This document shows positions 3,699 to 48,770 of a DNA stretch of 64,000 bases, one piece after another. The notes below the pieces were generated by a model. It did no database searches, was not told the DNA's origin, and worked only from the letters and a program-made list of their open reading frames with translations. The first letter of the stretch is position 1, and each line of letters starts with the position of its first letter. The position numbers were made by a program, and so were the translations under genes. Origin of the DNA: a virus; IMG/VR virus record IMGVR_UViG_3300045988_105285, positions 32,001 through 96,000 of that record. One strand, 5' to 3'.

Positions 3699-3721
3699 CA
3701 GTTGCTCGGGTGTGCCTCACC
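3699..3721 (-). promoter_or_regulatory. conserved leader motif copy 4
   Basis: Minus-strand RNA reads GGTGAGGCACACC-CGAGCAACTG. Confidence 0.5.
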
Positions 3722-6117: not shown

Positions 6118-9100
6118 ACAATCTACTCATCTTGTCTTTTAATTCGTGAATATCATTGAATGCTTGCAGCATAGGCTTATGCCATCGCTCTTGTCGCTCA
6201 TCAATCGACTGCAAGTACATCAAGCTTTGTGCAAGGATAGTCCTACCCTCATCAACCGCTAACCAAATGTTACCTACATTACCCATAATAGTATTCACGC
6301 TAGCCGTTAATAAGCTACCCTCTGTACCACCATCACGAGCCGCAATAGCATCCAACTTGGTATTTATGAGCTTTGCTTCCTCATACGTTCCCTCTGTGGC
6401 GATCTGCACCGCAGTGAAACGACCATTCAACTCTTCTCCTGTATCTTGGCTCATTGATTCAAAAGAACCGGAAGAAGCGGACTGCTCGTAAGATTGCTTG
6501 TAACCCGTAATATCAGCAATATTATCACGAATAGCCAAACCCTCTTGAACTATCTTGTCATACTCTTCTTTAAGATTATTCAATTCGGTTGGCGTGAGCT
6601 GCCTTCCTCCATTCTCCTTCATCTTGTTTGCCCAGCTCTCATAAAGAGGCTTAAGCTTTTTATTCATAAGGTCTCCCAAAGCGAAGTTAAGCATCGACTG
6701 GTTGAGCATTGTAGTGAAGTCATTAGAAAAATCCTTTGCAGACTTACTCATATCCATAAGATTGTTTATGAAGTCACTCTTCATCGAATCAAAGGTTGTT
6801 TGAGTCAAATTCTCATTGATTTGCTCCGTCAACTCCTCTAGTTTTCCCGCCAGTTCTGTATATTGCTCCCAATATTCCGTCTTATCATACTTACCTTGGT
6901 CGGTCATGTTCTTCCATACATCCGCATTATGTGTACGAATGTCAGCCATCTGCTCTGGAGTGAGCTTATATATATCCTCCAAGGAATTAACCTTGTTTAT
7001 CGAAGAATTGGTATAACCGCCTCTGACTGCCGATTGCTGTGCCAAAGTCTTATTGATTGCCGCATAATCTTGTGCAGAAAGATTCCAATAATAAGCATTT
7101 GAATGGTGTGCCCCATGATACCCCATCTGTGTTTTGAGAATATCCATCGTTTGGGTATTAACCTGCTTTTGGGCATCATAAGCAGCATTATAATTGCTGA
7201 CTGCCGTATAACCGGAAGACTTGTCGATAGAATCCTTTAACTTATCAATAGAATACATCAATCTGTCATTGCTCTCGGTCAGCTCTTCTGTTTTCTTCGC
7301 AACTTCTGCACCATTACCTCCGCCAATACCGAACATCTTGCCCAACGAGCCAATGGTTTTTATTCCATTCATAGCCGCACCTATGTAGTTTCCGCTTGCA
7401 AAATCAGAAAAGGCTTGTGTTCCACTGTTCAATGCATCCATTCCGTTATTCACGGCTTTACCAAAGCCTGTGTTTCCGAGACCCAAAGCATCGACTAACC
7501 CAGGAAGGTCTTTCAGCTTCTCTTGGATTTTCCTCAAGCCTTCAGCCCATTCCTCTATAGTATCATGCAAGCTCTTCTTTGCAGCATCCTGCTTTACCTT
7601 GGCTTCTTCCTGTGCCTTTCCGACTTCCTTCGTAGCCTTTCCGACCTTAACCTCTGAAACCGCCAAATCATCAAAAAGCTTACGTAACTTCTCCGTTTGG
7701 CTTACACTGAGATTCTTGGTAGAACCCATAAGTTTGTCCTTATTGGCAGAAGTGATATTACTGGTATCTATGTTAACCCCACTTTCAGCAAACACGCCTT
7801 GGATTTTTCTCCTTTGGCTCATATTATCAGCCTTGGCATCAAACTCCCCCTTTCTAGCTTGTGCCAATCGGTCTTGCGCATCCTTCGCCTCATCAATAAG
7901 CCTACGGTGTTCACGGACTGCATCATTAACCAATCCCCATCTATCCTTCTGCTCGGAAATCGCATCATCAATCTTGTAGATTTGGTCAGATACGGTTTTC
8001 ATGTCATCAATTTCCAACGTACCCGAACCAAGCAACTCCTTCATCTTCTTGCGAAGGTCTTCAAGATAAGGAATACTCAATCGGTTCATATCCTGAAAGA
8101 CAACATCCCAATTGATAGAATCCTTGAAATCCGAAAAATTCAACTTCTTCAACTGGTCGCTCATCTCCATTTCCGCACTCGCTGCGCCAAAAGTATCCCC
8201 CTTTTCTCTTGCAAGGTCTATCTTGTCGGCATATTCTTTCAAGATAGCATAACGCTGCTGTTCCAAGCTACCATACTGCTTCATGAAATCCAACATATCC
8301 TTTATCTCCGCTTGCTGGATTTCCTTCAGCTTTAATTGTCTCTGTTTCTCAATCAAGGCAATTTGGTCTTCAGAGTCCTGTCCAATGGTCTTTCCTAGAT
8401 GATTACCTTTGTCGTCAACCATTTGTGTGCCCAATACCTCTTTGCGGTATTCTGCATCGGACTTACCCTGTTTCCACATGCTGGCTTTACGACCTTTTCC
8501 CGAATTTACCCATACGATTTGGTCTTTCTTCTTCTTAGCCTCAACGAGTTTGTCAATCGAATCCTCTATAGCCTTTTTCTCCTTGTCTGAAGCCATGTTG
8601 ATTTGAGCAATCTCCTTTTCGGTCTCATTCTTAATCAATTCCGTTCTTCGCTTTGACAACTCATCGCTAGCTTTCTCCGAATAGGATGAAATAGACTTGG
8701 AATAGTCCTCCTCAGCCTTGCGCTTATTACCAGCCCTTGTCTCGGCATCATTCCTAGCCTTTTCAGCTTCTCTAGCCGATTTTTCTCTTGCCTTCTTCTC
8801 CTTATCTATCTCCTTTTGGCTTTTCTTCGGCTTACTTTCGATGTTGTTACCTCTCGCTTGCATCATAGCTAACTCATTAGCTACCTGTTCGTAAGTTTTC
8901 CATTGTCCTCCGATATTTAAAAAATCCCCCTTCTTGTGTGTATCAAGAAAGTGTTGACGAGCAGCCATACTCGCTTTCAACTGAGACTGAGACATATTCT
9001 TAATCCATGCAGGAAGCTCACTATCATCATAGTTAACTTTAATATCAAGATGCAACTTTCTACTGCACAACTTTATTGTTTCTTGGATTTCACTATTCAA

Positions 9101-12100
9101 ATCCTTGAAGCTCTTCTTTGCATATTGATTTTTCAAAGCTTGTTCCTCTTGCGCATAAGTCAACTTAGATGTGGCTTTTCTCGCACGTTCTGCGGCATTG
9201 ACGCTATTATTTATAGAATCAACAGTACCATCCAACTCAACTTTGTTGCTAACAAGCCCATCAGTAAAGTCATTTATATCAGGAATCATCTGAGCCACCT
9301 CAGAACGGCTATGGTGCATATTTTCGAGATAAGTTCCTATTTTTACATTCAACTCCCCTTGTAATTGAGAATATTGAGCATTCAATGCGTTGTACACCTT
9401 TAAATCTCCACCACAAGCATTCATCTCCTTTCGCAGTTCAGCTAACTTGTCTATGTCATCCTGACTTATGAGACTTCGAATAGTTCCCATTTCTACATCT
9501 GACAACTTGTCGTCAATAGAATCTTTGAATGAACCGAAAGAGGAATCATTTGAAGAATTATAATTATCATAAGCCTCTTGTAATTGATTTGCACGCTCCA
9601 TTTCAAGAGAACGCTTTTCAATAATACCGATAAGTTCTTCTTCATGCGCCTTTAACTCTTTAGCTTGCTCACTCATGCTTTGAGACTTCATTTTAGTCTC
9701 ATCCAATTTTATTCCATATTCTTCATAAGCAGACTTCAATTCATTTATTGTGTCCTTATGGTCTTCTGCATTGCCGTTTTTAAGAACCGCGAACAAGGAA
9801 CGAACCTTATTGCTAGCCTCAGCAGCCTTATTACCCATGTCTTGAGTCTTCTTAGCAACATCTTCCTCACTACTTCCAAACATCGCAAAAACAGACATAG
9901 CGGTTGTTACCAAAGTAAGAATAGTAGTTAGAGGATTTGAAAGCATTGCAGCCCACAACTCCTTCATGCTTACCGTCACGGCATTAGTCGCCCATGTTAA
10001 CACATTTTGAGCTAAGGCTAACCCCTTTGTGCCAACAGATAATATAGATGTAACAAGGGAATTTCGTTCCTTTGCTCCTGTATTCACGTTCTCGGATGCA
10101 GTATTTACATTGGTAGCCGCAGTATTAGCCGTTTTTGAAGTCGAGTTTGCCGAATTAGCAATAGTTTCCGAAGAAGTAGCATTTGCATTAGCACTTTTAG
10201 CGGTTGCATTGCTAGCTTCTGAAGTCGTATTGGCTTGTGTAGCAGTAGTTGCCGCCTCTGTTATACTAATCTTACCATTCTCTATATCAATTCCTTGCTG
10301 AACAATATCCCCAATTTCATCTGCCGCAGCTCCGGTCTCTTTATAGACCTCAGTTTCATACTCTTCAGCTTCTGCTAACTTTTCAGTCGTAGTTTGAAGC
10401 TCCTGTTGGATAGCCTTACGCTTTGCGTTAGAACTTTCGTATTCCTCATCCGCTTGCTGACGCTTTTGTATCAGCTCTTCCAATTTCGCTTGTTCAGCCT
10501 CGTATTGAACTATTGAACTATTTTCGTTATCCGAAAAAGAATCCTCATAGCCACCAAATGAAGTCGTATCAACCGCCCCATTATCATAGACCAATTCCTT
10601 TTCTTTCTGCTCTATGATTTGCTGCTGCTTTTTTATTTCCTCATCAAGCTGAGCAAGGACTACTCTCTTTTCACGAGCCTCATCCATCGCTTTGTCGTAA
10701 CTCTCTTGCTGCAAATCTACTTTCTTCTGTAAGGCGTTAGTTTCCAAAAGAGCCTTACCATAAGCGGTTTCATTTGCCTTGGCTATTTTTTGTTTAAGGT
10801 CAGCCTCAGCCTTTGCTTGTTCCGCAGCCTTATTTGCAGCAGCAATGTCGGCTTCTTGCGATCTTTTTGCACGCAACTCTTCTTCTGCGGCTTCCTTGGC
10901 ATTTACCGCATTTTGCCATTGGAGTTGTTCTTTCTCCGCAAGTCTTGTCTGCTCAACCAAGAGGTCACGCTTCAACTGGAGTTGTTTAGCCATTTCTTCA
11001 CTAATCAACCCCTCAGATTTCGCTAATTCTATCTGCTTAGATATGCGTTTCTCCGTTTCATCATCACCGATATTTTCGGTATCGGACAAAGCATTCCCCA
11101 ACTCATTATAACGGCTTGCCTTATAATCTTTTGTATCTTTTCCGTTAAGATGTCGGTAATCATTTTCCATTTCCTTGAACTGAGCCATTTTCTCATCAAG
11201 TCCCTTGGAAAGTTCCAAAGCCTCCATCTGTTCCTTAGCAGCAGATTGTTGCTGAGTGACAAGCATATCACGTTTAAGTTGCAATTGCTCTGCCATTTGT
11301 TGGGTAATGATGCCATCGGTCTGAGCCTCCTTAATTTTAAGAGATACAAGTTCCTCAGCCTTATCCGTACCCAACATATCGGTATTAGCTACCGCCTTAT
11401 TCAAATCCGAAAGTCTTTGGCTCTTATATTCTGAAGTATCTTTTCCGGTATAGGAATGGTATAATTCGGCTTCATCTTTGTACGCTTTTATTTTTTCGTC
11501 AAGATTACTTGCAATACCATCAAGTGTAGCTTGGTTCTGAGCTTTTTGAATGGATGCTGCCGCCATCAATCCAGCTTTGTAAGTTCCAACCATAACAGCT
11601 GCACTTCCTATCGTTTTAACCAAAGTCTGCCAATTATCAACCAAAGACGAAATCAAATCTAAGCCTGTGCCAAATATTCCTTGTGACTTCTTGCCAAGTT
11701 CGTTAAACATCTGGTCAACGCTATCGCCTATGTTAGACCATTTGCCTTGCAAGGTTGTGGATTGTTTTTCCATCAGTCCGCCAAACTTGCCGCCCTCTTC
11801 GGTCATGTTGATGATAGCTTTCTTCACCAAATCAGCCCCAACCTTTCCATCGGTAACCGCTTGCTGAACCTCTTGGGTTGTCTTGCCCATGATTTTGCCA
11901 AGCTCCTCAGCCATCGGGATGCCCCTGCCCATAAACTGACGCAAGTCCATCGTGTACATGCGGCCTTGGCTCATTGTCGTACCATACAAATACACCAAAT
12001 CGTTCAACGGAACGTTCAGACCTGCCGAAATATCTCCAAGATGAACAAGAATATCATTAACCTCATTTGCAGCCGTACCATAAGCCAACAACTGCTTTGC

Positions 12101-23580: not shown

Positions 23581-24828
23581 TCAACTTTCGGAAGTCCTTT
23601 CTTCCATTAAAATGTTATTTCTAATTCTTTTCAAAAACTTTATCGTTTTGGCACTCACAGCTTGCGTTTCATGCACCTTTACACCATCAATTTTACGCAA
23701 AACAACATTACCATGCGTACTACCAAAGATAAAACACTCCTTGCCTTTCCACCGCACCATGTCGAAACGCTGAAAGCGAGACTTGCCTATCTTGTGCGAA
23801 GCGATGCAAGACCTACGAATACCACCTTTCTTCGGGTTCGCAACGTGCAATGCTCTCGTATGGCGAGGTACACAACGACACATAAAGAAAGTTCTCGACC
23901 GCCTTGCGTGTACGTTCTTGGCAATACAGAAAGCATCGGCTGCATGAGTTTTCTCAATATCATTCTCTATGCGAGTGTGCTTGGTAATGTAACCATAGGT
24001 TAAGTACACATTTCCAAACTCAGCCTTGGCTCGTTCATACACCGACCAACGCATAATGTTCATCACCGCCGCATCACGCAAAGTTGTACCACGCTTGATT
24101 TTCAAATCGAACTCACCACGATGGTAAGCCTTGTGGCAGGTCTCGCACAAAACAACCAAGTTGGATGGGGAATTGCCACCAACCTTGCGGCTCTCCAAAT
24201 GGTGAACATTCAAGATAGGGTCTTTGCTCTTGCCCTTGCAATGAACACACTTATGTCCATCCCTTGCCAAGACGTACTCCCTCACGTTCCAAAAGCCCAT
24301 TTGCTCACCCTGCTGATACTCTTCGCCCTTGATGTCGGAATTCTTGATTTTCTGAGCATCAAACTGAGCAACCTCGATTGTGGTCTTCGTAATTGGAAGT
24401 AACTTATGAACCAAGCGGATAACCTTTAAGTGGCTCTCTACCTTTTGCTCAATACTGGGTGCTAGCCAACCATCCTTTCGTTTGCGGTTGTCAAAACGAA
24501 CCTTGCGGTAACGTGTCTTGCGGTTTCGTCTTGTCCGTCTCAACTCCCTGCGAGTAGAAAGCAAGTTCACAACATCACTTCTTAACTCGACCTGCGCTGC
24601 AAGCAGCTCCTTCTTCTCGGAACTAGCCGAAACGCCAATGTGCTTTGAGCCAGCATCAATGCCAAGGCTCACTTCCTGTGTGTAGATGGTGCTCTCATAA
24701 TCCAACTGAACGACAAACGGAACACGGCTGACTACATGAGCCTTGCCATGGCGAAGAAGATAGCCTATCCTCCCTTCACGCTCAGTCGGCATCAATGCCT
24801 TACCTTCCTTGTTCCTTACGTAAATCAT
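23581..24828 (-). CDS. iscB: IscB RNA-guided endonuclease (OMEGA effector; PLMP + split RuvC + bridge helix + HNH)
   Basis: Motifs in order: KALMPT; LGIDAGSKHIGVS; RRELRRTRRNRKTRYRKVRFDNRKRK; TIEVAQFD; CVHCKG..LNVHHLESRKVGGNSPSNLVVLCETCH; THAADAFCIA; then a C-terminal beta-rich domain. The ORF-track start at 24837 is a TTG; the ATG is at 24828. Confidence 0.88.
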   Translation of the reverse strand: MIYVRNKEGKALMPTEREGRIGYLLRHGKAHVVSRVPFVVQLDYESTIYTQEVSLGIDAGSKHIGVSASSEKKELLAAQVELRSDVVNLLSTRRELRRTRRNRKTRYRKVRFDNRKRKDGWLAPSIEQKVESHLKVIRLVHKLLPITKTTIEVAQFDAQKIKNSDIKGEEYQQGEQMGFWNVREYVLARDGHKCVHCKGKSKDPILNVHHLESRKVGGNSPSNLVVLCETCHKAYHRGEFDLKIKRGTTLRDAAVMNIMRWSVYERAKAEFGNVYLTYGYITKHTRIENDIEKTHAADAFCIAKNVHARRSRTFFMCRCVPRHTRALHVANPKKGGIRRSCIASHKIGKSRFQRFDMVRWKGKECFIFGSTHGNVVLRKIDGVKVHETQAVSAKTIKFLKRIRNNILMEERTSES

Positions 24829-24844
24829 AAAAATCAATTTAAAT

Positions 24845-28777: not shown

Positions 28778-28802
28778 CAGTTTTTATGGTGTGTCTCACC
28801 AT
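28778..28802 (-). promoter_or_regulatory. conserved leader motif copy 9
   Basis: Minus-strand RNA reads ATGGTGAGACACACCAT-AAAAACTG (6-bp stem). Confidence 0.6.
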
Positions 28803-29300: not shown

Positions 29301-29536
29301 ATAACTTTTATGTTAACTTTGTCTTCAAAAAACGCTTCTAGCACTTCCTTGGCTTTTGCATCTGCTTCATCCAAGTCTTTGCATATGACTACTTGAACAC
29401 CATAACCTATATGGTTACGCAATTCATAACTACCATCAGCCTTAACCAACCGGAGGAAAATATCTCCACCTTTGAAGCGGTACGAATATCCTTCAGTTGC
29501 CTCGTTCCATTGTCTAACTATGTTCCTCACCGCCAT
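29297..29536 (-). CDS. hypothetical protein (79 aa)
   Basis: ORF track entry in operon context. Confidence 0.55.
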   Translation of the reverse strand: MAVRNIVRQWNEATEGYSYRFKGGDIFLRLVKADGSYELRNHIGYGVQVVICKDLDEADAKAKEVLEAFFEDKVNIKVI

Positions 29537-29741
29537 AATATTTTTGCACTTTTACCAATGTAGCACTAGCACCCTCAATATAGGCTGCGATAATGACATT
29601 TCTATATAGCTCACTATTTTCCTTATCAATTCCTACCAAACCTTCTGTTGATTTCAAAGGCTCAATTGTAAATTTATAAGCCTCCTCTACTATTCAGCTA
29701 GGAACTCCATTTGAAATCAAATTCTCACAATACTCATTCAT
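29514..29741 (-). pseudogene. small ORF interrupted by an in-frame TGA at 29694..29696 (pseudogene, internal start, or readthrough)
   Basis: Read manually: MNEYCENLISNGVPS-TGA-IVEEAYKFTIEPLKSTEGLVGIDKENSELYRNVIIAAYIEGASATLVKVQKYYGGEEHS, all in one frame. Confidence 0.35.
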
Positions 29742-29765
29742 AATTTAACCTTTTAAAATTAGTGG

Positions 29766-30185
29766 ATGACAAGGGATTTAAACCCTTGTTGGTGTCAATA
29801 CCTCCCCAGTGACCTGGTACACGGAATGTTTAATCAAGAAATCCGCTCCAAGTTTGCGAGGGTCGCATTGCTTTCAGTTGCCAATGCCACTCATCCGTTT
29901 GTCAGCGACAGATGCGAATTTGAAGACTATGCACCATTCCCAACCTTGCCCAAGGGTTTCTGTCGCTGACTTATGGGCTTGTGCCAATGGCTGTCGGCAA
30001 ATTTTAAGTGTTCACATCTTACGATGCGGTATTAACTATCTCCCTGCCCAAGGGAACAACCATTAGCGATAGGCTATTTGTAGTTATGAAACTTCAAAAT
30101 AAAGCCGTGTGACTCCTAAGTTTACAATCCCGCCCCCACGCTGGGCATCACACGGCTTTGAGACGTGGGTATTTGGTAGATTATG
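29766..30185 (-). ncRNA. large structured non-coding region of unknown class (strand inferred from neighbours)
   Basis: About 420 nt without a credible ORF and visibly GC-richer. Perfect 12-bp stems at 29901-12/29959-70 and 30101-12/30148-59, plus at least 6 shorter hairpins (29770-88, 29865-88, 30040-55 and others). Confidence 0.4.
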
Positions 30186-30191
30186 GCTTTC

Positions 30192-30353
30192 CTACCTCGT
30201 CTTTCTTATATCATTCCGCTGCCATCCTGCCGCCCAGTCTACCGGAGCTGCATTACAACAGTGAAAAGATGTATTCACATTATACAAGGCAGCTCTGAAC
30301 TCATCCAATTCTTCTGCCGAGAACGGACAATCCTTGTTTACTCGCCTTGCCAT
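30192..30353 (-). CDS. hypothetical small Cys-containing protein (53 aa)
   Basis: Read manually: MARRVNKDCPFSAEELDEFRAALYNVNTSFHCCNAAPVDW... Confidence 0.35.
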   Translation of the reverse strand: MARRVNKDCPFSAEELDEFRAALYNVNTSFHCCNAAPVDWAAGWQRNDIRKTR

Positions 30354-30508
30354 AATTTCACCACCTTATAGCCAAGCCGACTTGCAAGATCAAGAAATAC
30401 GTTAAAGTCTTCCTGTGCAAGTTCTGTTCCTGATACCACTCCATTCTCTATAGTGAAGTAACGCTTTGTATTGTAAAGCGTATCCTCCAAGCAATAAGTT
30501 TCTTTCAT
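30338..30508 (-). CDS. hypothetical small protein (56 aa)
   Basis: Read manually: MKETYCLEDTLYNTKRYFTIENGVVSG... The ATG lies 9 nt after the methyltransferase stop. Confidence 0.4.
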   Translation of the reverse strand: MKETYCLEDTLYNTKRYFTIENGVVSGTELAQEDFNVFLDLASRLGYKVVKLWQGE

Positions 30509-30517
30509 TTCTTCTTT

Positions 30518-31243
30518 CTAATCAATAGTAAACAACCTTTCGACTGGTCTCTTTGTAATATTCGGGTTAATGGAATTAGTTATTTCCTTTTCCCAGACAC
30601 ATCTGAACTCTTGCGGCATCTGATACTCGCTGATAAAGACCTTATGTCCTCTTCTAGCCATTTCCATGCACCAAATATAGAAACTTTCATAATCGAAGTT
30701 CTTTGATACATCATACTTTTTCGTAGCTTTGTAAGGTATATCGCAATACACTATACTCCTTTCCGGTATCACAAGTTCATCATAACTGCCGCTATAGAAC
30801 TCAACACCTTTAATGAGAGGCACATCACGCATTGTATTTTCTATCTGCTCCCTTATGTAATCCCTTGCCTTTCCGTTCTTGCCGACAACATTATGTCCGC
30901 TATAGCCACCATCAAAGAAGCGACCATTAAAGCTTGCCATGAAGCCGACTAGTCCTACACCAGCTTCGGTAAAGAAATTATTCTTTCCATGATAGCAATC
31001 TCGTGCCTTGTCATACGTCTCCTTGCTAATATGCCTGAAGACAAATCCTCCATCCTGAAGATGCTTCCACATTTCGATAAGATACCTATTCTTATCGTTG
31101 GCAATCCTGCGATACGTGTCCGGAACGTTCTCAATAACGCTACAGCCACCACAGAAAGCATCTACAAACGTATCATGTTCCTTGTCCAGCATAATCGGCA
31201 ATATTTCATGCACGATTCTAGCCTTACTACCCATGTACTTCAT
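30518..31243 (-). CDS. N6-adenine DNA methyltransferase (Dam-like, D12 class)
   Basis: YMGSKARIVHEILPIM, FVDAFCGGCSV (AdoMet motif) and VYCDIPY (DPPY-type catalytic motif). Confidence 0.85.
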   Translation of the reverse strand: MKYMGSKARIVHEILPIMLDKEHDTFVDAFCGGCSVIENVPDTYRRIANDKNRYLIEMWKHLQDGGFVFRHISKETYDKARDCYHGKNNFFTEAGVGLVGFMASFNGRFFDGGYSGHNVVGKNGKARDYIREQIENTMRDVPLIKGVEFYSGSYDELVIPERSIVYCDIPYKATKKYDVSKNFDYESFYIWCMEMARRGHKVFISEYQMPQEFRCVWEKEITNSINPNITKRPVERLFTID

Positions 31244-31497: not shown

Positions 31498-32345
31498 CAG
31501 CTTGCTTTCTTTGATGTTGTTCTCTCCAAAGGAAAGTCACTCTTCATAAAGTCATTAATCCCTATGTAAGTCCGCTGCAAATCCTTCTCATCGCCTTTTA
31601 AGTCTTCCGTTGCATTAATAGCAGCCTCATTTAATGTCTGTTCGTCAAAGACACCTTTTCTCACCTTGTCGAAATAAGAAAGAATTTCTTTGGTCATCAA
31701 ATGGTCTGCCAGTCTCTCGAAATCCTTATCCATCACTAACGCCATGAAGTCATAGGAGTTTTCAAAAGCAAGTATTGGGGCAAAATCCTTGAACGCTTGC
31801 ATTAAGTTAACGTGCAATTCTTCAAACAGCTTACGGATGATATTCTCATAAGTGCCCAAACAAAGGTTAGTGAGATTATAAAGGATGATTGCATTCGCAT
31901 AAACTCCCGATTTTTCACCAATTCCTAAGTTCTGTAACCTCACCGCGATCTTATCTCGCAACTTATACAAGTCTCCACTAATCTTGTCATAGAACGTCAT
32001 TGCGAATTCGTTATTAAAATCTGCATTAGGAACATAAGCGTCATAATACTTAACCACCTTGCGAAGATTCTTCTTGCAGTCCACCCACCTCTTCTTAACT
32101 TCAAACCTAACGCATTTCTTCTTCAGAATACTCTTTTCGATTTTCTGAATGAAACACTCTGCCAATATCATTTCGACATAGACATACTGCTGTAGATAGG
32201 CTCTGGTAACAACCATAACCTTATTTACTTCGGTTTCGGACATTTCATGCGGAACACTGATGATTGTCTTCTTGCCACCGACATCTAACAGAACTCTTCT
32301 GAAACAATTAACACTAGACATGATGTTTTCTGTTTGAATATTCAA
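31497..32345 (-). CDS. hypothetical protein (282 aa)
   Basis: Long clean ORF. No motif recognised. Confidence 0.6.
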   Translation of the reverse strand: MNIQTENIMSSVNCFRRVLLDVGGKKTIISVPHEMSETEVNKVMVVTRAYLQQYVYVEMILAECFIQKIEKSILKKKCVRFEVKKRWVDCKKNLRKVVKYYDAYVPNADFNNEFAMTFYDKISGDLYKLRDKIAVRLQNLGIGEKSGVYANAIILYNLTNLCLGTYENIIRKLFEELHVNLMQAFKDFAPILAFENSYDFMALVMDKDFERLADHLMTKEILSYFDKVRKGVFDEQTLNEAAINATEDLKGDEKDLQRTYIGINDFMKSDFPLERTTSKKAS

Positions 32346-33817: not shown

Positions 33818-33842
33818 CAGTTTTTAAGGTGTGTCTCACCTT
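33818..33842 (-). promoter_or_regulatory. conserved leader motif copy 10
   Basis: Minus-strand RNA reads AAGGTGAGACACACCTT-AAAAACTG (6-bp stem). Confidence 0.6.
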
Positions 33843-39992: not shown

Positions 39993-40018
39993 AAGGTGAG
40001 ACACACCTTCAGAAACTG
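39993..40018 (+). promoter_or_regulatory. conserved leader motif copy 12 (plus strand)
   Basis: AAGGTGAGACACACCTT-CAGAAACTG. Confidence 0.6.
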
Positions 40019-43767: not shown

Positions 43768-43792
43768 GGTGAGTCACACCATAAAAAAACTG
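43768..43792 (+). promoter_or_regulatory. conserved leader motif copy 13 (plus strand)
   Basis: GGTGAGTCACACC-ATAAAAAAACTG. Confidence 0.55.
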
Positions 43793-48747: not shown

Positions 48748-48770
48748 GGTGAGACACACCATAACAACTG
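48748..48770 (+). promoter_or_regulatory. conserved leader motif copy 14 (plus strand)
   Basis: GGTGAGACACACC-ATAACAACTG. Confidence 0.55.

Follow-up and report, generated by a model that had tools for sequence, protein, structure and literature searches.

We report here that an intergenic block on the minus strand of a human-gut phage is a real, conserved structured RNA gene, whose 3' third forms a tRNA-like cloverleaf with a long hairpin in place of the anticodon loop. The block lies in a stretch of 64,000 nt, here called the window, from the virus record IMGVR_UViG_3300045988_105285 (positions 32,001 to 96,000). With no match from Rfam 15 or ARAGORN, it counts as neither tRNA nor tmRNA, nor as omega-RNA or intron. 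An unannotated 450-nt gap in very common uncultivated gut phages gains a concrete identity, that of an RNA family which Rfam lacks. The explanation towards which we lean, with modest confidence, is that of an operon-embedded phage tRNA mimic which RNase P and RNase Z would probably cut free and whose gene is also a homing site of a TnpB cassette.

A non-coding structured RNA read from the minus strand

The block occupies the whole intergenic space between two small reading frames:

29744..30191, minus strand: structured-RNA block, whole intergenic region (ORF map, alignments of relatives)
30192..30353, minus strand: Cys-rich ORF of 53 aa, directly upstream (ORF map)
29514..29743, minus strand: gene of 75 aa, starting 19 nt past the discriminator of the tRNA-like domain and carrying an in-frame TGA at 29694-29696

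In the ORF map it extends from the stop codon of the 53-aa ORF to the start codon (ATG) of the 75-aa gene; in alignment the homology of the GenBank record MT835610 to it begins at 30174. Within the block the G+C content is 0.45-0.51, as against 0.395 across the whole window, and the GC skew, about -0.3 in the flanks, comes close to 0. The minus strand folds with an energy z-score of -3.45, with none of 100 shuffled sequences folding equally well; the plus-strand z-score is -2.48. An earlier note, made from the letters of the window alone, had described the region as GC-enriched and highly structured, which these values bear out. Its individual stems were likewise recovered by an inverted-repeat search: the two perfect 12-bp long-range stems at 29901-12/29959-70 (I1) and 30101-12/30148-59 (I2), the gcattg/caatgc stem (I6) and the hairpin at 29769-89 (I3), which the note had placed at 29770-88. 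What it had overlooked were the strand and the cloverleaf that unites these separate stems.

The longest minus-strand ORF in the block has no more than 37 aa, and the plus strand holds ORFs of 67 and 85 aa, both antisense to the operon and neither conserved as a protein. In the homologues described below the tRNA-like domain measures 134, 138, 135, 135, 158 and 118 nt, differences that are not multiples of three. The block is non-coding, as first proposed, and is not the remnant of a gene. A plus-strand protein gene of 67 or 85 aa could draw on the fact that the 67-aa antisense ORF is still open in close variants; however, amino-acid changes are dense there (5 of its first 20 residues are altered), the length differences are non-triplet and the substitution pattern fits minus-strand pairing. 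A self-splicing intron remnant, one of the candidates raised initially, finds no match to any Rfam group I or group II intron model at E up to 10 and no interrupted gene: the flanking ORFs are complete in all lineages, and the number of modules varies by lineage. We regard the plus-strand gene and the intron remnant, taken together, as hardly credible.

The locus is present in more than 120 IMG/VR contigs and one GenBank record at 92-99.8% identity; when annotated phage genomes were sought, this record, MT835610, was the sole match, and it is itself unannotated. Alignment of 35 distinct variants yielded an RNAalifold consensus with 16 helices, in which 99.4% of the stem cells are canonical when read as minus-strand RNA versus 85% when read as the plus strand. 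Almost all variable stem columns are switches from G-U to G-C or A-U, which only the minus strand tolerates. Hence, the alignment indicates that the RNA is read from the minus strand, in the direction of the operon. Nucleotide diversity in the block does not exceed that of the flanking genes.

The tRNA-like domain and its 5' modules

Distant homologues were sought in contigs chosen via a neighbouring 282-aa protein with 48-74% identity, and the matching intergenic gaps of these contigs hold diverged but recognisable copies of the block. A further group, G5, which has few shared genes (35-54% amino-acid identity), was added by a DNA-pattern scan; a wider pattern search of IMG/VR and a metagenome collection returned only the window's group and G5, plus false positives. 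From six sequences of six phage lineages, all belonging to one broad phage family, a covariance model (R1) was built, which finds exactly one copy per phage locus in these lineages (152 bits and E 1e-36 for the window, 72 bits for G5 and 45 bits for G4). In an alignment fitted to R1 itself, 29 of the 34 pairs change on both sides across the six lineages, 92.5% of the paired cells can pair versus 71.7% after shuffling, and the covariation score is 0.49 versus 0.16 in shuffled alignments and at most 0.10 with slid partners. Across the six lineages covariation is seen in every cloverleaf helix. The domain, delimited by R1 and a helix-by-helix parse, and its parts, taken from the same parse, are as follows:

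29763..29896, minus strand: tRNA-like domain, 134 nt
29890-29896, minus strand: acceptor 5' strand
29865-29887, minus strand: D arm
29800-29862, minus strand: extended 'anticodon' arm
29788-29799, minus strand: variable region
29771-29787, minus strand: T arm
29764-29770, minus strand: acceptor 3' strand
29763, minus strand: discriminator A

An acceptor stem of 7 bp followed by a discriminator is found in all six lineages; its sequences differ (5' strands GGAUGAG, GGAUGGG, GGACGUG, GUGGAGG and GAAGUUG) with full compensation. The window's own acceptor has a G-G mismatch at the seventh pair, and the stack of acceptor and T stems comes to 11-12 bp, this seventh pair being ambiguous. The D stem has 6 bp, where 3-4 are usual, and is also compensated (GCAUUG, GCAUGG, GCCACG, GUAUAG). 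The T-arm-like hairpin of the earlier note proves to be the genuine T arm of this domain, with a 5-bp stem and a 7-nt loop of the pattern U54, U55, C56, R57, A58. In lineages G2-G6 the T loop reads UUCGAAU, UUCAAAU, UUCGAGU or, in G6, UUCGACC, and is of the canonical UUCGAAU/UUCAAAU type in four of these five; the window's lineage alone has U56, in a non-canonical UUUAAAU or UUUGAAU. The D loop contains GG in the other five lineages and GA in the window's lineage only. The co-occurrence of U56 and GA is suggestive of the expected change of the elbow pair from G19:C56 to A19:U56, and the domain probably has a tRNA elbow, formed by D loop and T loop.

The variable region is 12 nt long and unpaired; a competing pairing joins it to the D loop (AUUGG/CCAAU, GUUGG/CCAAC). 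The elbow covariation represents a single evolutionary event. CCA is not encoded, the discriminator being followed by CUA, CGG, CGA or CAA.

The most marked departure from a tRNA lies in the anticodon arm. A 5-bp anticodon stem is retained (GCCUC/GAGGU, GCUUC/GAAGU, ACCAC/GUGGU) and the 7-nt loop with U33 is absent, its place being taken in the window by a hairpin of about 54 nt. The stem runs on through an internal loop, GCAA/CNCUGGG, into two further helices: one of 6 bp, which is fully paired in two lineages and has tandem A-A/A-G mismatches in three, and, beyond an A/GUA internal loop, one of 5 bp (GCGGA/UCCGU; GCAGA/UCUGU in one lineage), capped by an apical loop that includes UGRUUAAAC. 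G4 has a single long helix instead of this composite arm. Because it has no anticodon loop, the RNA as folded here would be unable to decode. We also considered CUCUGGG, the 7-nt 3' strand of the internal loop, as a true anticodon loop formed after removal of a 5' 'intron'; this was rejected, as an A occupies the position of U33 in G1 and G2, and no bacterial intron of the kind needed is known.

Upstream of the tRNA-like domain the RNA contains further modules:

30101..30159, minus strand: hairpin P_a, 12-13-bp stem and 35-nt loop with the conserved core GCCUUGCGUGGGGGC (inverted repeat I2)
29983..30067, minus strand: module M1, with a 13-bp closing stem GCUAAUGGUUGUU/GACAGCCAUUGGC (RNAalifold helices 4-7)
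29901..29970, minus strand: module M2, perfect 12-bp stem and 46-nt interior (inverted repeat I1)

The stem of P_a covaries in the distant phage L204, with compensatory double changes (GUGCAA/UUGCAC); that of L161, by eye, is wholly different (AAGGAGGGUUG/CGACCCUUCUU) and out of register in the stem alignment. The core of the P_a loop is conserved although the sequence of the stem varies. M1 encloses hairpins, one with a GUAA tetraloop, and its closing stem shows double changes in L157, L204 and L161, while M2 has an A-U/G-U switch at one pair. M1 and M2 share CCCUUGGGCARGG..., and M2 has the look of a tandem duplicate of M1 that has diverged; L157 has one module only, the interior of which mixes M1- and M2-like sequence. 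Module number differs between lineages: two P_a-like hairpins and one M module in L157 and L204, one of each in L161, a reduced version of the 5' part in L158, and essentially the tRNA-like domain alone in L206 and G5. The tRNA-like domain thus constitutes the conserved core of the family.

These data bear on the possibility that the block is a decaying tRNA pseudogene together with neutral spacer, devoid of function. Such an origin would accord with the rejection of the domain by ARAGORN and the Rfam tRNA model, with the degenerate T loop of the window's lineage and with the destruction of the gene by TnpB in many relatives. We nevertheless disfavour it as very improbable: compensatory changes keep every helix in lineages whose neighbouring proteins are only 48-72% identical, the 6-bp D stem and the internal and apical loops, all foreign to tRNAs, are conserved, and the block is no more diverse in nucleotide sequence than the genes beside it.

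Known RNA classes were compared in turn. A search of the whole window with Rfam 15 at the gathering threshold returned no match, and thus no known housekeeping RNA; the E-value mode (E up to 10), applied to the block and two divergent homologues, gave only noise, namely the L31 leader, mir-71 and T-arm fragments. The region had been put down as of unknown class, with a new phage ncRNA among the candidates, and we judge that candidate to be the right one. ARAGORN at default settings called 0 tRNA or tmRNA genes, and the Rfam tRNA model RF00005 had no match at E up to 10. Only at -ps80 was ARAGORN forced into a call, a tRNA-Pro interrupted by a 54-nt 'intron', which was not accepted. The RNA is like a canonical tRNA in the 7-bp acceptor, the discriminator, the 5-bp T stem and the order of the four arms, as well as in the 7-nt T loop with U54, U55 and A58, with C56 outside the window's lineage, and in the GG of the D loop of five lineages. 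It is unlike one in having a 12- to 17-bp arm with an 11- to 48-nt loop instead of a 7-nt anticodon loop, in the 6-bp D stem and 12-nt unpaired variable region, and in the missing CCA.

The tRNA-like domain of tmRNA has the same topology, in that acceptor and T arm are kept and a long helix replaces the anticodon arm. The tmRNA assignment was rejected: ARAGORN -m finds none, the Rfam tmRNA model covers only 13 nt of the T arm, and there is no tag reading frame. Position 3:70 is A-U (G-C in G4) and not the G3:U70 of tmRNA, and this RNA, unlike tmRNA, has a true D stem and an acceptor 5' strand internal to a longer transcript. [quoted passage not shown] The Rsr-binding motif GNCGAA(N)G, as defined for this class (PMC4201824), is, however, absent from all six lineages in a regular-expression search, and so YrlA and Y RNAs were set aside. 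Moreover, the order of elements in YrlA is circularly permuted compared with this RNA, the Rsr-binding stem being built from its ends; YrlA carries GNCGAA and lies within 4 kb of an rsr (TROVE-domain) gene; no TROVE domain was found among the 17 window ORFs scanned with Pfam.

The C4 RNAs of phages P1 and P7, the CI RNA of P4 and the 'species 1' RNA of T4 are phage ncRNAs with tRNA-like ends that are excised by RNase P from longer transcripts. This RNA is unlike them in being much larger and in having extra 5' modules; there was no match to the Rfam C4 model, and no complementary target sites for the loops were found. As in the plant-mitochondrial t-elements and the MALAT1 mascRNA, where tRNA shapes in longer transcripts serve as signals for RNase P and RNase Z, the shape may act as such a signal here by analogy. 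Those elements are eukaryotic or organellar and unrelated in sequence, with the T arm of mascRNA alone matching, at E = 7.5. In short, the RNA resembles tRNA mimics and fails the defining tests of each class compared.

The TnpB cassette at the same site

In a large fraction of sister phages part of the block is exchanged for a nuclease gene, and the block of the window is the uninvaded allele of that site, a relation that had escaped the first reading. Two stretches of the window are concerned:

29819..29980, minus strand: stretch of 162 nt replaced by the TnpB cassette, comprising M2 and the 5' two-thirds of the tRNA-like domain (split BLAST matches)
29801..29819, minus strand: stretch directly after the right end of the cassette in sister phages, ACCAGGTCACTGGGGAGGT (junction variants)

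BLAST matches to the block are split into positions 18-211 and 374-448, and in 30 of the 77 close loci the positions between them, 212-373 of the block (window 29819-29980), are swapped for a cassette of 1.27 kb. The copy in L021 encodes a TnpB ORF of 378 aa with the Pfam domains OrfB_IS605 and Cas12f1-like_TNB, in which, by eye, all three RuvC motifs are apparently kept (GIDFG, CLEDL and RDLFAAENI). The cassette lacks tnpA. A copy of the promoter-leader that belongs to the phage drives it and fills the 100-120 nt from the left junction to the start codon of tnpB. The left junction joins ...CCATTGGCAC to TTTAATTATAAAAC, directly 3' of the M1 closing stem. The right end, GAGTATGTCA, is conserved in the unrelated contexts L145, L146 and L147 (Prevotella bivia, a ruminal Prevotella and another S. 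copri contig), with divergence immediately after it; the cassette therefore ends exactly at the junction. It follows that the adjoining ACCAGGTCACTGGGGAGG would template the guide of the omega-RNA, and the stretch 29801..29819 of this window is a matching potential target. The intact allele reads GTGTA followed by CCAGGTCACTGGGGAGG across the junction.

The distant phage L204 has the cassette at the same site with the same junction. Its copy shares 89.8% identity with that of L021, against no more than 68-77% for the flanks; among the close relatives identity is 99.8% in the cassette and 90.8-93.3% in the left flank. That the cassettes are more similar than their flanks indicates horizontal spread to a single site, in keeping with the homing that has been proposed for OMEGA nucleases (TnpB, IscB and relatives) and discussed for phages that infect together (PMC13565253); it is plausible that the block is the homing site of a TnpB-omega-RNA cassette. 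Two features count against homing: the cassette replaces 100-162 nt rather than being a clean, simple insertion, and no empty-site allele, in which the left flank (part A) would be joined to the right flank (part C), was found in IMG/VR. About 40% of the close relatives are without an intact copy of the RNA gene, so that the RNA is dispensable and accessory.

Compared with IS200/IS605 TnpB elements, the cassette of the sister phages is alike in its OrfB_IS605 and TNB domains and in the conserved 3' scaffold that runs to the junction and is followed by locus-specific sequence. It is unlike them in the missing tnpA and in the phage promoter-leader, and the block of the window is the target allele, not the element. 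What sets the RNA apart most is this link with a TnpB cassette adapted to phages. Reviews regard TnpB homing in phages as a theoretical scenario; the locus looks like a natural instance of RNA-guided TnpB homing in a phage population, with a phage promoter driving the cassette and the target gene as the would-be template of the guide.

Conversely, the block might itself be a piece of an IS200/IS605 element, either its terminal hairpins or an orphan omega-RNA or guide scaffold left after loss of the nuclease, the latter having been among the first candidates. Both the TnpB cassette at the same locus in sister phages and the IscB with its omega-RNA 5 kb away in the window would be consistent with this. 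The reading is nonetheless largely refuted, and we give it very little weight. The block shows no similarity to the IscB omega-RNA region or leader: the 10-nt identity once offered as a link is a matter of chance (E = 21), dozens of 10-mers of the block recurring in the window. Nor does it resemble the TnpB 3' scaffold, which ends exactly at the junction, and the part A and part C flanks are absent from other copies of the same TnpB. It occurs in lineages without an adjoining nuclease gene, OMEGA or other, and its own flanks are the 53-aa and 75-aa ORFs. As regards a decayed TnpB, tblastn found none in the block; the small upstream ORFs are not TnpB remnants, the resemblance of a 56-aa ORF to a RuvC-II segment being weak (E = 26) and without Pfam support.

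Operon context and possible roles

The window derives from a tailed phage, with a portal protein, Rha, ThyX, RNase H, two DNA methylases and IscB. A promoter-leader cassette of the form TTTG...TATCTTTGCA...GGTGAGACACACC...AAAACTG recurs in it 9 times versus 0.13 expected. The copies that bracket the block, at 33.8 kb and 28.8 kb, were placed by motif count and aligned contexts:

33829-33840, minus strand: promoter-leader cassette, previous copy
28789..28800, minus strand: promoter-leader cassette, next copy downstream

As the block lacks a copy of its own, it is probably part of a polycistronic transcript. Our preferred reading starts from there: the block would be transcribed within the minus-strand operon as a P_a hairpin, one or two long-stem modules and a terminal tRNA-like domain, in this order. 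The stack of acceptor and T stems and the elbow of tRNAs are recognised by RNase P, RNase Z, the CCA-adding enzyme and several modification enzymes. Going by shape, the domain would recruit RNase P to cut at G1 (29896), and RNase Z or an exonuclease would act after the discriminator (29763). The two cuts would free a stable tRNA mimic of about 135 nt and would also part the 5' structured RNA from the downstream mRNA. The mimic, being non-decoding, may then occupy tRNA-binding factors, such as host enzymes or tRNA-directed defence nucleases. In the sister phages the guide of the TnpB cassette would be templated by the adjoining conserved stretch, which is retained in the intact allele of the window.

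A serious rival, which we rate as less than likely, is that the tRNA shape is mere punctuation in cis: it would direct the RNase P and RNase Z cuts of the mRNA and so define or stabilise the 3' end of the preceding message and the 5' end of the one that follows, with no function in trans for the released RNA. The element precedes the next start codon closely in five of the six lineages, with 12-28 nt between discriminator and ATG (19-28 nt in four, 12 nt in G5), and it sits within an operon without its own promoter cassette. A search of the window for antisense targets of the conserved loops gave none above chance, and the TnpB alleles, which bring their own promoter, would render the element dispensable; all of this agrees with a role in cis. 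However, an acceptor/T minihelix would be enough for processing, and the extended arm, with its GCAA/CNCUGGG and UGRUUAAAC loops, is nonetheless conserved across differing helices; the 5' modules with their conserved loops are maintained as well; and L161 has a terminator-like hairpin after the element and about 230 nt to the next gene. That the extended arm and its loops are conserved speaks for action in trans rather than for a mere cleavage signal.

The tRNA mimic of our preferred reading can be given a bolder form, which we put forward tentatively, judging it possible but not probable: an undescribed class of trans-acting, anticodon-less tRNA mimics fused to modular structured domains and conserved throughout a family of abundant Prevotella/Segatella phages of the human gut, the gene of which would also be the natural target of a gene drive, a phage-adapted TnpB cassette that spreads among co-infecting phages through cutting of the intact gene. 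In trans the mimic could, for example, decoy or inhibit host defence nucleases directed at tRNAs, or enzymes that process or modify tRNAs. tRNA mimics are rare and usually informative, as in tmRNA, YrlA and the viral tRNA-like structures. A tRNA body that is kept while the anticodon loop is lost, with conservation at the level of a family, offers a lead on tRNA-centred conflict.

The host is likely Prevotella/Segatella, because near-identical TnpB loci occur in Segatella copri metagenome bins and remoter TnpB relatives in Prevotella. Pfam and PHROGs searches of the neighbouring genes gave no functional clue, and the 53-aa ORF, which keeps its position in G1, G2 and G4, has no match in either. 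The in-frame TGA in the small gene downstream, noticed at the outset, is real (29694-29696, minus strand) and unique to the window, the codon being TGG in 77 of 77 relatives.

Variable genes around the structured RNA

Two gene units lie near the structured non-coding RNA block:

30175-31240, minus strand: cassette of a D12-class (Dam-like) methyltransferase and two small ORFs
23581-24843, minus strand, leader to about 25100: IscB, with RRXRR and HNH domains

The methyltransferase cassette is absent from MT835610/L001 (an unannotated GenBank entry), in which the RNA block lies directly 3' of the 85-aa gene. In another relative, L151, the methyltransferase is 580 aa long and contains a LAGLIDADG_3 domain, which suggests an intein or homing-endonuclease insertion. 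The structured leader upstream of IscB matches no Rfam family at the gathering threshold. In relative L152 an IscB gene is located elsewhere, upstream of the 274-aa gene; as the site thus differs, the OMEGA elements (RNA-guided transposon nucleases) are polymorphic insertions within this phage population.

Downstream of the RNA block, a 75-aa gene (29514-29743, minus strand) has an in-frame TGA at 29694-29696. This codon is TGG (Trp) in 77/77 related loci, and the in-frame stop is no trait of the phage group. The options are a lone nonsense mutation in the window genome, a sequencing error there, or read-through of the TGA. The alleles of this gene are strongly divergent, with 66-69% amino-acid identity between the window and the related contigs L149-L153, whose DNA is otherwise 92-96% identical to the window over the surrounding region. 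The gene marks a local hotspot, shaped either by replacement or by diversifying selection.

A recurrent promoter-leader cassette

A cassette combining a Bacteroidota-type promoter (-33 TTTG and -7 TATCTTTG) with a conserved leader, GGTGAGACACACC...AAAACTG, occurs nine times in the window, against an expectation of 0.13:

444-455, 744-755, 2441-2452, 3710-3721, 28789-28800 and 33829-33840, minus strand: promoter-leader copies
39995-40006, 43768-43779 and 48748-48759, plus strand: promoter-leader copies

Every copy is co-oriented with the local genes (9/9), and the copies probably mark the starts of phage transcription units. In the sister-phage loci where a tnpB cassette replaces the middle of the RNA block, tnpB is predicted to be driven by a copy of this promoter-leader cassette.

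tRNA genes and tRNA-like elements in distant relatives

Unlike the window, which has no tRNA genes, the distant relative L161 carries an array of six canonical ones (Glu, Gln, Met, Thr, Tyr, Phe) at 9038-9682, about 2.5 kb downstream of the L161 copy of the tRNA-like RNA, as does L162 in the corresponding gap.

At least one additional anticodon-less tRNA-like element is present in L166, a phage of the distant G5 lineage, at 1750-2330, chiefly 2233-2310. The 2233-2310 element, for which ARAGORN makes no call, combines an acceptor stem AGGAGAG/CUCUCCU and a T arm ACUGG-UUCGAUU-CCAGU with an anticodon arm that is lengthened to about 11 bp and capped by an 11-nt loop. G5-type phages may encode several such anticodon-less tRNA mimics; a further T-arm-like hairpin, GCGG-UUCGACU-CCGC, lies near 1890 of L166.
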